A stretch of DNA of 64,000 nucleotides, from positions 120,644,552 to 120,708,551 of the forward strand of contig NC_052147.1 of NCBI RefSeq assembly GCF_902713615.1. The letters run 5' to 3'. This document shows, in pieces, positions 5,188 through 7,263 of this stretch. The notes beneath the pieces were generated by a model. The model searched no databases. It saw only the letters and a list, made by a program, of their open reading frames with translations, and had not been told where the DNA came from. The position numbers and the translations under genes are program-made. The stretch's first letter is position 1, and each line of letters starts with the position of its first letter. Source of the stretch: Scyliorhinus canicula. Lineage: Eukaryota.

Positions 5188-5514
5188 AAAATCTATCCCC
5201 AGGATGTGCTCTGCTGTCCGGGGAAGATTTACTAAAACTACGGGGTGTCTTGTGGAAATGTTCCCTAGCTGGATCGCTACGGGTGCTGTGATATGTCCCT
5301 GCTGCGAGTGTCCGGTGAACCCGCTAAGTGTGATGGTGGAGGTGGTCGGCCACGTGTCTGCGTGTGCCGTGGTTGTGGAGTTAATGGTGGTGCGGGATCC
5401 TCCTGTGTCCCACAGTAACTCTATGGGCTTCCCTTTGACTTTTGCCGTGACTACGGGCCTCCCTGATGAGTCCCATAGTGTGTCACAGACCCAAGTGGGG
5501 GAGCCCGAACACCG
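5188..5514 (-). CDS. pro: Retropepsin protease, in frame between the gag UGA and RT (missed by the ORF track)
   Basis: Manual translation RCSGSPTW...IELLWDTGGSRTTI...EHILGIDF-MNAH: 109 codons without a stop, same frame as gag and RT. Confidence 0.92.
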
Positions 5515-7263
5515 TCAGTTCGTCTCGTCCACATTGGTGGGTCCTGACTGTACTGCTACATTGTGGATGGGTTTTGCTTTGTTGCGGTTCAGAGTGCCTG
5601 TCTGCTGGCCTCTCTGAGATCGCTGGGGTGCATTACACTCTTTTGCCCAATGCCCTAACTGTCCACAGTTATAGCATTCCTGTCCTTTCTGTTGAGGGCT
5701 GCTCTTGCCTTCATTTACCCATGCGGGCTTCTGGTGCTCTCTGACTGCTTGGATATCTGCAGCAGCCTGAGCCTCTTCTGGGGATCTAACTTTTCCTTTT
5801 GCCTGAAGCGATTGCTCCCAAGCGCGGGACAATCTTTTCAGGACCCATTTTTCGTTATGGGCCTCTTCTGAGGGGTCGTAATTATTGCAAGCGCTCTGTC
5901 CTGCCTCTGTTGCGTGTGAGATAATTGTGCGCGTCCACTTAACCATGTTTTCGCGGGTTAAATGCGCTCTATCTAGCTGTCCGAAAACTGCGCTGAAATG
6001 AATCCACAGCCTTCCTGCGAATGCTGTGGGGTGTTCGGATCTCTTCTGCCTGCACTTATTCAAGCCTTCTACGGGGTCACCTCTATTGTACCCGATGGCA
6101 TCTAAAATGGCAGTGTGCATCTCCTCTAGGCTGCCTCCTGCCACGTTCTGTGGGTCGGGGAGGGCTGCCACTACACTCTGGTCTAAGCTCAGCACGGTGA
6201 GCTTAACCTGCTCTCTTTCATCCAGGCCGTACATGGTAGCCTGCTGTTTTACTTTAGCGAAGAACTGGTGGGGGTCTGCGGTGGGGAGGAACGGAGTGAT
6301 CTTTTCACAAGCATCCCTTAGCTGGGTTACTGTTAAAGGGGTGGTGTAAGTTATGTCTGGGGCGCCTTCGGATTCGGCTTTCCTCTGTGTGGTTACGGGA
6401 TTCATGGGTGCGGTTATGGTCTGAGCTGTGGGGGGTTGGGGTGCCTGTCGTTTCTGCTGAGCTGCGGGCGCACATGTTCCCTGAACATAACGCTGCGCTG
6501 TCTCGCTTAATTCCTGCCATTCTGGGGCGTTTTCCCCATCTAACTGTGCTCCAAAGGTGCTTTGGAAGCCATTCTGCACCGAAAGCAGAGATTGCAATTC
6601 CGCAATCTGTTTCCTGCATTTCGCGTGGTCAACTGTGCTTTGTCTTTGTTCGGTCGTTGCAGCGTGGAGTGCTCTCAAAGCTGCTTTGAGATCGGAACAT
6701 TGCCTCTGCAATGCCTCCACCTGCTTTTCCGATTCCTGTCTTATCAGAACGGCACGTTGCACGTCCTGATAGGCTTTCTCATACTGGGTCTGGGAACTGT
6801 TCAGATGAGCTAGACAAGACTGGTGAGCCCTCTTGGCATCATCCACCTCTCTACCCTTCTCTGCCAACTTCCCTTTAAGATCCAGGTTTTCTTTCTCGAT
6901 GTCCCTGACATCGACCTTACTCATTCGGTTCCTTTCCTCTAAATCTGCCCGGAGCGTCCTGATGACCTCCTCTGCGCCTCGCAACTGTGCCAAGCAGGAC
7001 ACAATCGCCATCGGCTTGCGTGCTTTACTTAAACTCTTTTTGTGTATCTGAGAGAGGTTCTCCCACCAAGTATGACCTATACTTCCGGGACCTGTCTCCT
7101 CATTTGCACAAAACTCTTTCCAAAGGGGCCATCCCTTTCCCTGCAGATATTTGCAGAGTTCCAGCTCCCACGTGGGACACTGGCCTACTCTGCTACTGCT
7201 GCTGGTCGCTGCGACCACAAACTTTGCTGGATCCATCAGGCGTTCCATTGCCTGCATGGCCAT
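5515..7263 (-). CDS. gag: Gag: N-terminal domain, long coiled coil, capsid, single CCHC zinc knuckle
   Basis: ORF 5515..7356, with the first ATG at 7263 (MAMQAMERL). Heptad-rich segment EEVIRTLRADLEE...IAELQSLL, MHR-like CRQKRSEHPTAFAGRL, and CYNCGQLGHWAKEC. Confidence 0.9.
   Translation of the reverse strand: MAMQAMERLMDPAKFVVAATSSSSRVGQCPTWELELCKYLQGKGWPLWKEFCANEETGPGSIGHTWWENLSQIHKKSLSKARKPMAIVSCLAQLRGAEEVIRTLRADLEERNRMSKVDVRDIEKENLDLKGKLAEKGREVDDAKRAHQSCLAHLNSSQTQYEKAYQDVQRAVLIRQESEKQVEALQRQCSDLKAALRALHAATTEQRQSTVDHAKCRKQIAELQSLLSVQNGFQSTFGAQLDGENAPEWQELSETAQRYVQGTCAPAAQQKRQAPQPPTAQTITAPMNPVTTQRKAESEGAPDITYTTPLTVTQLRDACEKITPFLPTADPHQFFAKVKQQATMYGLDEREQVKLTVLSLDQSVVAALPDPQNVAGGSLEEMHTAILDAIGYNRGDPVEGLNKCRQKRSEHPTAFAGRLWIHFSAVFGQLDRAHLTRENMVKWTRTIISHATEAGQSACNNYDPSEEAHNEKWVLKRLSRAWEQSLQAKGKVRSPEEAQAAADIQAVREHQKPAWVNEGKSSPQQKGQECYNCGQLGHWAKECNAPQRSQRGQQTGTLNRNKAKPIHNVAVQSGPTNVDETN

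Follow-up and report, generated by a model that had tools for sequence, protein, structure and literature searches.

How does the retroviral element near the start of this stretch of shark DNA produce its protease and polymerase, when an in-frame UGA stands between gag and pro? The element lies on the minus strand of a 64,000-nt stretch of the Scyliorhinus canicula genome (the whole of which we call the window), and a first-pass annotation had proposed programmed readthrough of an alphavirus type: a UGA-CGG stop context followed by a short hairpin. The account that we favor, and that we consider probable when taken as a whole, is that an SnRV-like endogenous retrovirus (ERV) has its gag-pro junction here and that readthrough at this point depends on UGA-CGG together with an extended stem-loop.

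Anatomy and Identity of the Element

All features of the element are on the minus strand. A probable 5' LTR (7582..8350, its upstream edge approximate) was inferred from an AATAAA at 7619-7614 and a CA end at 7582; no second LTR copy was found in the window, and the 3' LTR would fall past the window start. Five nt past the LTR end, the sequence reads as a PBS-like stretch (7558..7576) that begins with TGG and presumably resembles the 3' end of a tRNA-Arg. The gag gene (5518..7263) has 582 codons, counted from Met46 of the open reading frame 5515-7398 (the Met codon at 7263); its product carries one CCHC zinc knuckle (zf-CCHC, E 1e-7) and an N-terminal part that is coiled-coil-like, with a weak match (E 0.03). 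An in-frame UGA (5515..5517) and an 8-nt spacer that starts with CGG (5507..5514) lead into protease, RT (YVDD) and tether, 621 codons in the same frame as gag (3649..5514, DTG at 5409-5401), while RNase H and integrase (1302..3707) lie in a different frame, with a frame break near 3650-3707 in the window copy. This break, between tether and RNase H, sits at a short dinucleotide run, and the sequence P0008 (80% identical) stops at nearly the same residue, reflecting either a contig end or a shared break. The region where env is expected (1..1300) holds only a 152-aa open frame; no env was recognizable there, and tblastn with the env proteins of two relatives, L001 and L003, gave no match. The window copy is thus damaged outside the junction, so a chance nonsense mutation at the junction itself had to be excluded.

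The RT matched protein P0033 at 326 bits, as against 217-219 bits for the solved MuLV RT and 212 bits for foamy virus RT (scores from different databases). P0033 comes from L001, a viral genome of 10,688 nt whose gag and pol share a frame and meet at UAG-GGC; with this junction, we take it to be an SnRV-like genome. UAG-GGC is the hexanucleotide stated for the junction of snakehead retrovirus (SnRV) (PMC13517186). In an RT tree built from 48 of 124 eligible rows, picked by similarity and with distant outgroups, the window RT and L001 fell into one starred clade of 16 rows (95/95) that the tree does not order internally. The second relative, L003, is a contig from a metagenome, and its gag-pol junction reads UAG-GGA; it lies outside the 16-row clade and inside a wider starred group. 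(At 1440-8853, L003 carries a retrovirus-like element with frame breaks and an env-like region, and it is probably host DNA.)

The element also has features of SnRV-like viruses: apart from the pol frame break of this copy, gag, pro and pol lie in a common frame interrupted by one stop, and there is a single zinc knuckle as well as a tether with a second RNase H. It is, on this sequence evidence, most likely an SnRV-like (clade Huo, class III) ERV of the shark. SnRV-related ERVs are known in the elephant shark (PMC4422223) and make up clade Huo (PMC6001957). Lokiretrovirus, a group marked by an Env related to paramyxovirus F and an RT sister to those of all retroviruses, was our initial guess and was set aside once the RT grouped with L001; the Lokiretrovirus hosts listed in the available part of PMC7947760 include no cartilaginous fish. 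In IMG/VR, P0002 had no match, and P0033 and alignment A2 each matched the L001 genome only; the ESM Atlas returned generic RT clusters only; and the metagenome search yielded at least two confirmed loci among 592 stretches. L004 (1148 nt), which covers RT residues 225-525 only, was excluded from the junction comparison.

Elsewhere in the window, direct repeats that are 94-95% identical and about 3.5 kb apart (46081-50061) flank an integrase fragment at 48392-49036, and by sequence this is a second, smaller LTR element. An RT fragment, probably from a LINE, lies at 26438-27331, with an inverted and diverged copy at about 60340-61599. ARAGORN predicted a tRNA-Phe at 37117-37206, within a repeat that recurs inverted at 54449-54625; this prediction is probably a SINE head.

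The Stop Codon and Its Conservation

The end of gag is AAC-UGA-CGG, with the UGA at 5517-5515, just as had been annotated, and the gag frame (5515-7398) and the protease-RT frame (3649-5514) are one and the same. The annotation was also right that no ATG precedes the DTG motif: counted from the stop, the catalytic DTG comes at residue 36 and the first Met not until residue 110, and so ordinary initiation past the stop cannot yield protease. A TGA followed by CGG is rare in its own right (7 of the 1269 minus-strand TGA triplets in the window).

Is this stop a property of the family or an accident of one copy? All four Gag homologs that we found are from Scyliorhinus torazame (72-75% identical), in line with a catshark as the host; three stop at the same column as the window Gag, and the fourth departs earlier. 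We also compared 69 contigs from 4 of 24 listed public runs, none of the 24 marked as RNA, over 5340-5640 (15 pieces and 13 loose ends were displayed, a further 55 and 14 were not). In each of the four runs, the best-covered contig agrees with the window across the stop, although it may originate from the same locus. None of the 22 rows of the variant table falls in 5507-5519, an absence that is not proof, because the table apparently omits any difference that lies fewer than 31 letters from a contig end or does not exceed 1% of depth (a restriction that we infer). A peak in summed depth across 5472-5515 in run X13 was set aside, since overlaps between contigs inflate it.

The depths are more telling. 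The depth at 5520 (637.7) is the exact sum of 364.8 (the window type), 258.5 and 14.4, and the contig of the window type starts exactly 30 nt ahead of that site; it follows that a second common copy type (depth 258.5), which differs from the window type at 5520, carries the 30-mer 5490-5519 with UGA-CGG. Three further contigs align as far as 5519 and then continue into a tail resembling the S. torazame Gag end, and the loose ends represent further copy types whose gag tails can no longer be aligned as DNA. A very divergent copy, present in runs X2 and X11, has UGA-CGG visible in a loose end behind an unrelated gag tail. The X2 and X11 contigs are one base apart in a G run, with the frame kept in X11 only, and both appear to be interrupted downstream.

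This most divergent copy has a further peculiarity (loose ends, 5500-5514): the bases of the spacer and of the 5' arm are kept and shifted by one position. In X11 the shift changes three encoded residues while the frame is kept; X2 has one extra base and is out of frame. Bases kept while residues change, as in X11, suggests selection on the RNA rather than the protein. Before 5450 the loose ends of the same copy run into a short-period repeat of the kind typical of a SINE or LINE tail, and the interruption seems to lie inside protease.

Both L001 and L003 have an in-frame stop at the position that matches the window junction. In none of the data examined did most copies carry a sense codon here, and on these comparisons the UGA is not a copy-specific mutation. 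A nonsense mutation without recoding (for example from CGA) would agree with the damage elsewhere in the window copy (the pol frame break and the unrecognizable env); we reject it as scarcely credible, since the stop keeps its position in S. torazame, in the divergent copy types and in both distant relatives. A protein spanning both sides of the stop was found neither among 3285 candidates nor among 1356, which is weak evidence.

Pol might instead be made by another route: from a spliced pol mRNA, as in foamy viruses, by reinitiation, or by selenocysteine insertion at the UGA. The RT is about as similar to that of foamy virus as to that of MuLV (212 vs 217 bits), and a CAG at 5465-5463 resembles a splice acceptor; however, one divergent copy lacks the acceptor AG (variant row 5464), and the X2 and X11 contigs, whose status as RNA is a guess, cross the junction uninterrupted. 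No in-frame AUG lies ahead of the active site. For selenocysteine, no SECIS element was found by Rfam in 1-9000 (E <= 5), with the element's 3' end lying outside the window; the same Rfam scan returned no relevant family and three chance-level matches. We regard these routes, taken together, as very improbable. Readthrough at the junction UGA, by comparison, is very probable, and the proposal of programmed readthrough is upheld as an inference, the stop being conserved and sense codons not prevailing.

The Predicted Fold Downstream of the Stop

The hairpin first proposed for this site (5507-5454, here model A) has 16 pairs, all of them canonical, but it is not the favored structure. Folded alone, it has a predicted energy of -24.4 kcal/mol (z -2.15), and a fold of the 84 nt from the stop does not stand out (z -1.29). 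From a fold length of 90 nt upward, the 5' arm of model A switches its partner from 5463-5454 to 5433-5425. Model A is preferred if folding stops at about +60; with the spacer kept unpaired, its helix has a probability of at most 0.01 at all six longer fold lengths. As judged by these predictions (which exclude pseudoknots), model A is probably wrong.

The alternative is an extended stem-loop of 82 nt (5425..5506, model B), predicted at -37.2 kcal/mol (z -3.17), with none of 200 shuffles as good. It begins 8 nt past the stop and closes at +90. Its G-C-rich basal helix, H1, would pair 5506-5499 with 5433-5425 (8 bp and a 1-nt bulge on the 3' side); above it, the predicted fold has H2 (5496-5493 with 5441-5438), H3 (5490-5483 with 5450-5444) and two variable apical helices, H4 and H5. 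The 90-nt segment starting at 5510 ranks first of 195 in energy across gag-pol and fifth in z-score, and 1 of 500 shuffles folds as well. When the first 6 or 8 bases were kept unpaired to mimic the terminating ribosome, H1 had a probability of 0.90-0.92 at five of six fold lengths and 0.57-0.58 at one; the long fold persists at 15 and 25 °C.

Two other predicted structures were seen in gag-pol. Directly 3' of model B, a second hairpin falls on the active-site codons of protease (5391-5414), and the 90-nt fold that ranks second in stability across gag-pol (7131-7220, -36.2 kcal/mol) lies near the gag start; the latter fold is possibly a packaging-related structure.

Natural Variants Against the Folds

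The variants listed among the contigs bear unequally on the two folds. In the outer helix of model A they break all four affected pairs (sites 5455, 5458 and 5461), and in its inner helix one of two. In H1, the 3' arm is free of listed variants, and a variant at 5506 (3 contigs, at a CpG site) disrupts the bottom pair. In H3 the one change keeps pairing; of two changes in H2, one keeps pairing and one breaks it (5439, 1 contig), and in that contig, as judged by eye, an adjacent change restores the same four bases one position over. All five listed variant-pair effects in the apical H4 and H5 disrupt pairs. One contig skips or diverges across 5413-5478.

Degenerate third positions vary unevenly: 10 of 14 change in 5435-5479, as compared with 0 of 5 in 5420-5434 (Fisher p 0.011), although the contigs counted are few and related, and 5420-5434 lies beside the active site of protease. 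Among the contigs of the shark family, no double-sided covariation was seen, because the 5' strands are almost constant. Read together, the natural variants favor the base of the long fold.

Readthrough might still be driven by the short hairpin, or else by some hairpin or small pseudoknot that forms locally within 5480-5510. That block is the best conserved among the contigs, a G-U-rich pairing of 5507-5501 with 5492-5486 can form (at a fold length of 70), and the canonical model A is, after all, preferred when the fold is cut short. Against the short hairpin stand its near-zero probability at every longer fold length and the breaks in its outer helix, and we consider the whole of this alternative unlikely. 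The extended stem-loop at 5506-5425 is, as far as modeling can say, probably the stimulator. The label given by the first-pass annotation, an alphavirus-type UGA-CGG with a 3' stem-loop, fits, but the stem-loop is most likely the one at 5506-5425 and not the one at 5507-5454.

Similar Stems Predicted in Two Relatives

L001 and L003 have stems of 7 and 8 bp, respectively, both perfectly Watson-Crick and both with a spacer of exactly 8 nt, and both close at +73, which is seven codons ahead of the catalytic Asp. Comparable stems start at 0.7% of positions in the L001 genome and at 0.24% in the L003 genome. Between the two, 2 of 7 pairs differ on both sides (compensatory), against a background of 26 identities in 73 from +1 to +73; the comparison is a small sample of two relatives only. 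The stem of L003 had a probability of 0.78-0.99 at five of six fold lengths with 8 bases unpaired and was less steady with 6, and that of L001 depended on fold length (0.00-1.00).

As compared with these two, the window element has four extra codons, and its stem closes at +90, or 5.3 codons ahead of the Asp. Because this is 5 nt past the position equivalent to +73 after the four-codon insertion, the homology of the stems, as the sequences align, is positional and not base for base.

These stems also bear on the possibility that the UGA-CGG context suffices alone and that the fold is incidental or has another use, such as packaging. Alphavirus cassettes without structure give about 1% readthrough (PMC3159437), the shark family shows no covariation within itself, and the apical helices are not conserved; yet the most stable segment of gag-pol sits exactly 8 nt past the stop, and the same spacer precedes a stem in two relatives. 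We give this alternative a small chance, slightly better than that of a short or local hairpin, and return to the extended stem-loop as the candidate stimulator.

A broader reading would be that SnRV-like retroviruses share an undescribed stimulator: a long-range stem exactly 8 nt past the gag stop that closes 5-7 codons before the catalytic Asp, distinct from the gammaretroviral pseudoknot and bound to no one stop codon. By adding UGA-CGG to it, the shark lineage would have arrived, by convergence, at the complete alphavirus type II arrangement. We offer this tentatively, as a model with slightly less than an even chance of being right.

Proposed Mechanism and Its Meaning

If the favored account holds, most ribosomes would terminate at the UGA and release Gag, while a few percent would insert an amino acid via a near-cognate tRNA and go on, in frame, through protease, RT, tether, RNase H and integrase, giving Gag-Pol at a fixed low ratio. 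The leaky UGA-CGG context would weaken termination, and H1 (5506-5499 with 5433-5425), placed 8 nt past the stop at the ribosomal mRNA entrance, would raise readthrough; in alphaviruses the stem stimulates readthrough 3- to 14-fold (PMC3159437).

The readthrough strategy and the UGA codon are already known, and neither would surprise a specialist; the hairpin appears to be undescribed, and the possibly shared stimulator is the interesting part. Our search of mostly open-access literature found no description of UGA-CGG with an extended stem-loop in a retrovirus, nor, in later papers, of a stem at an 8-nt spacer in SnRV. The accessible text of a 2026 review calls stop-codon readthrough in epsilonretroviruses unverified and its cis elements unclear, and for unclassified fish and amphibian retroviruses it gives stop-codon contexts only (PMC13517186); a pseudoknot screen downstream of the SnRV and WDSV stops found nothing, according to the part of that paper available (PMC3835772). 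With a 90-nt candidate now defined, and with stems at matching positions in two distant relatives, the question of cis elements becomes testable, and the UAG-G and UGA-CGG contexts become comparable on a similar structure.

Comparison with Known Systems

The claim that readthrough of this type is unusual for retroelements was overstated, since in-frame readthrough is accepted as the strategy of both SnRV-like and other class III elements (PMC1224870, PMC2717909) and UGA junctions are already in print. With SnRV, OVEX1, XtERV-S and CmiERV lineage I, the window element shares a single gag-pro-pol frame split by one stop, and it has one zinc knuckle, a tether and RNase H in common with SnRV-like ERVs. 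The stops themselves differ: SnRV has UAG-GGC and OVEX1 an amber stop, as against UGA-CGG here, while the XtERV-S gag-pol junction has TGA (PMC8278194). A stimulatory structure for SnRV-like viruses is not described in the available portions of PMC13517186 and PMC3835772.

UGA is likewise reported for the junctions of the epsilon-related fish and toad viruses ZFERV, SSSV and RMEV, and the ZFERV hexanucleotide (UGACGA) is one base from the site in the window; the accessible part of the review places these viruses in another retroviral lineage, treats their readthrough as unverified and gives no structure (PMC13517186).

MuLV, with its type III signal, serves the same purpose of setting the Gag to Gag-Pol ratio and also has an 8-nt spacer. 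Its stop is UAG-G, however, with a purine-rich spacer and a compact H-type pseudoknot, whereas the window junction has UGA-C and a predicted long stem-loop, and so lacks the UAG-G of type III. When the MuLV stop was switched to UGA, readthrough was essentially unchanged (PMC4178896).

The closest likeness is to the type II sites of New World alphaviruses, the furovirus coat protein and the coltivirus, which share UGA-CGG and a spacer of 7-9 nt (PMC3159437). A type II site has CGG or CUA directly after its UGA, and an open reading frame continues in phase beyond the stop; the window junction has just this arrangement. Its 8-nt spacer falls in the 7-12-nt range given for type II, its stem being predicted (PMC3159437). 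Like the fold predicted here, type II structures have a bulged basal stem and a less conserved interior and span about 90-140 nt (PMC3159437), and the conservation pattern seen here, in few contigs and with no double-sided change in the family, fits the two-peak expectation for such sites. The basal helix is shorter in the window (8 bp predicted vs 10-12 bp; PMC3159437). Since the viruses are unrelated, the likeness is convergent: the shark element pairs the gag-pro-pol plan of the SnRV-like ERVs with a stop context and a predicted fold of the kind found in New World alphaviruses.
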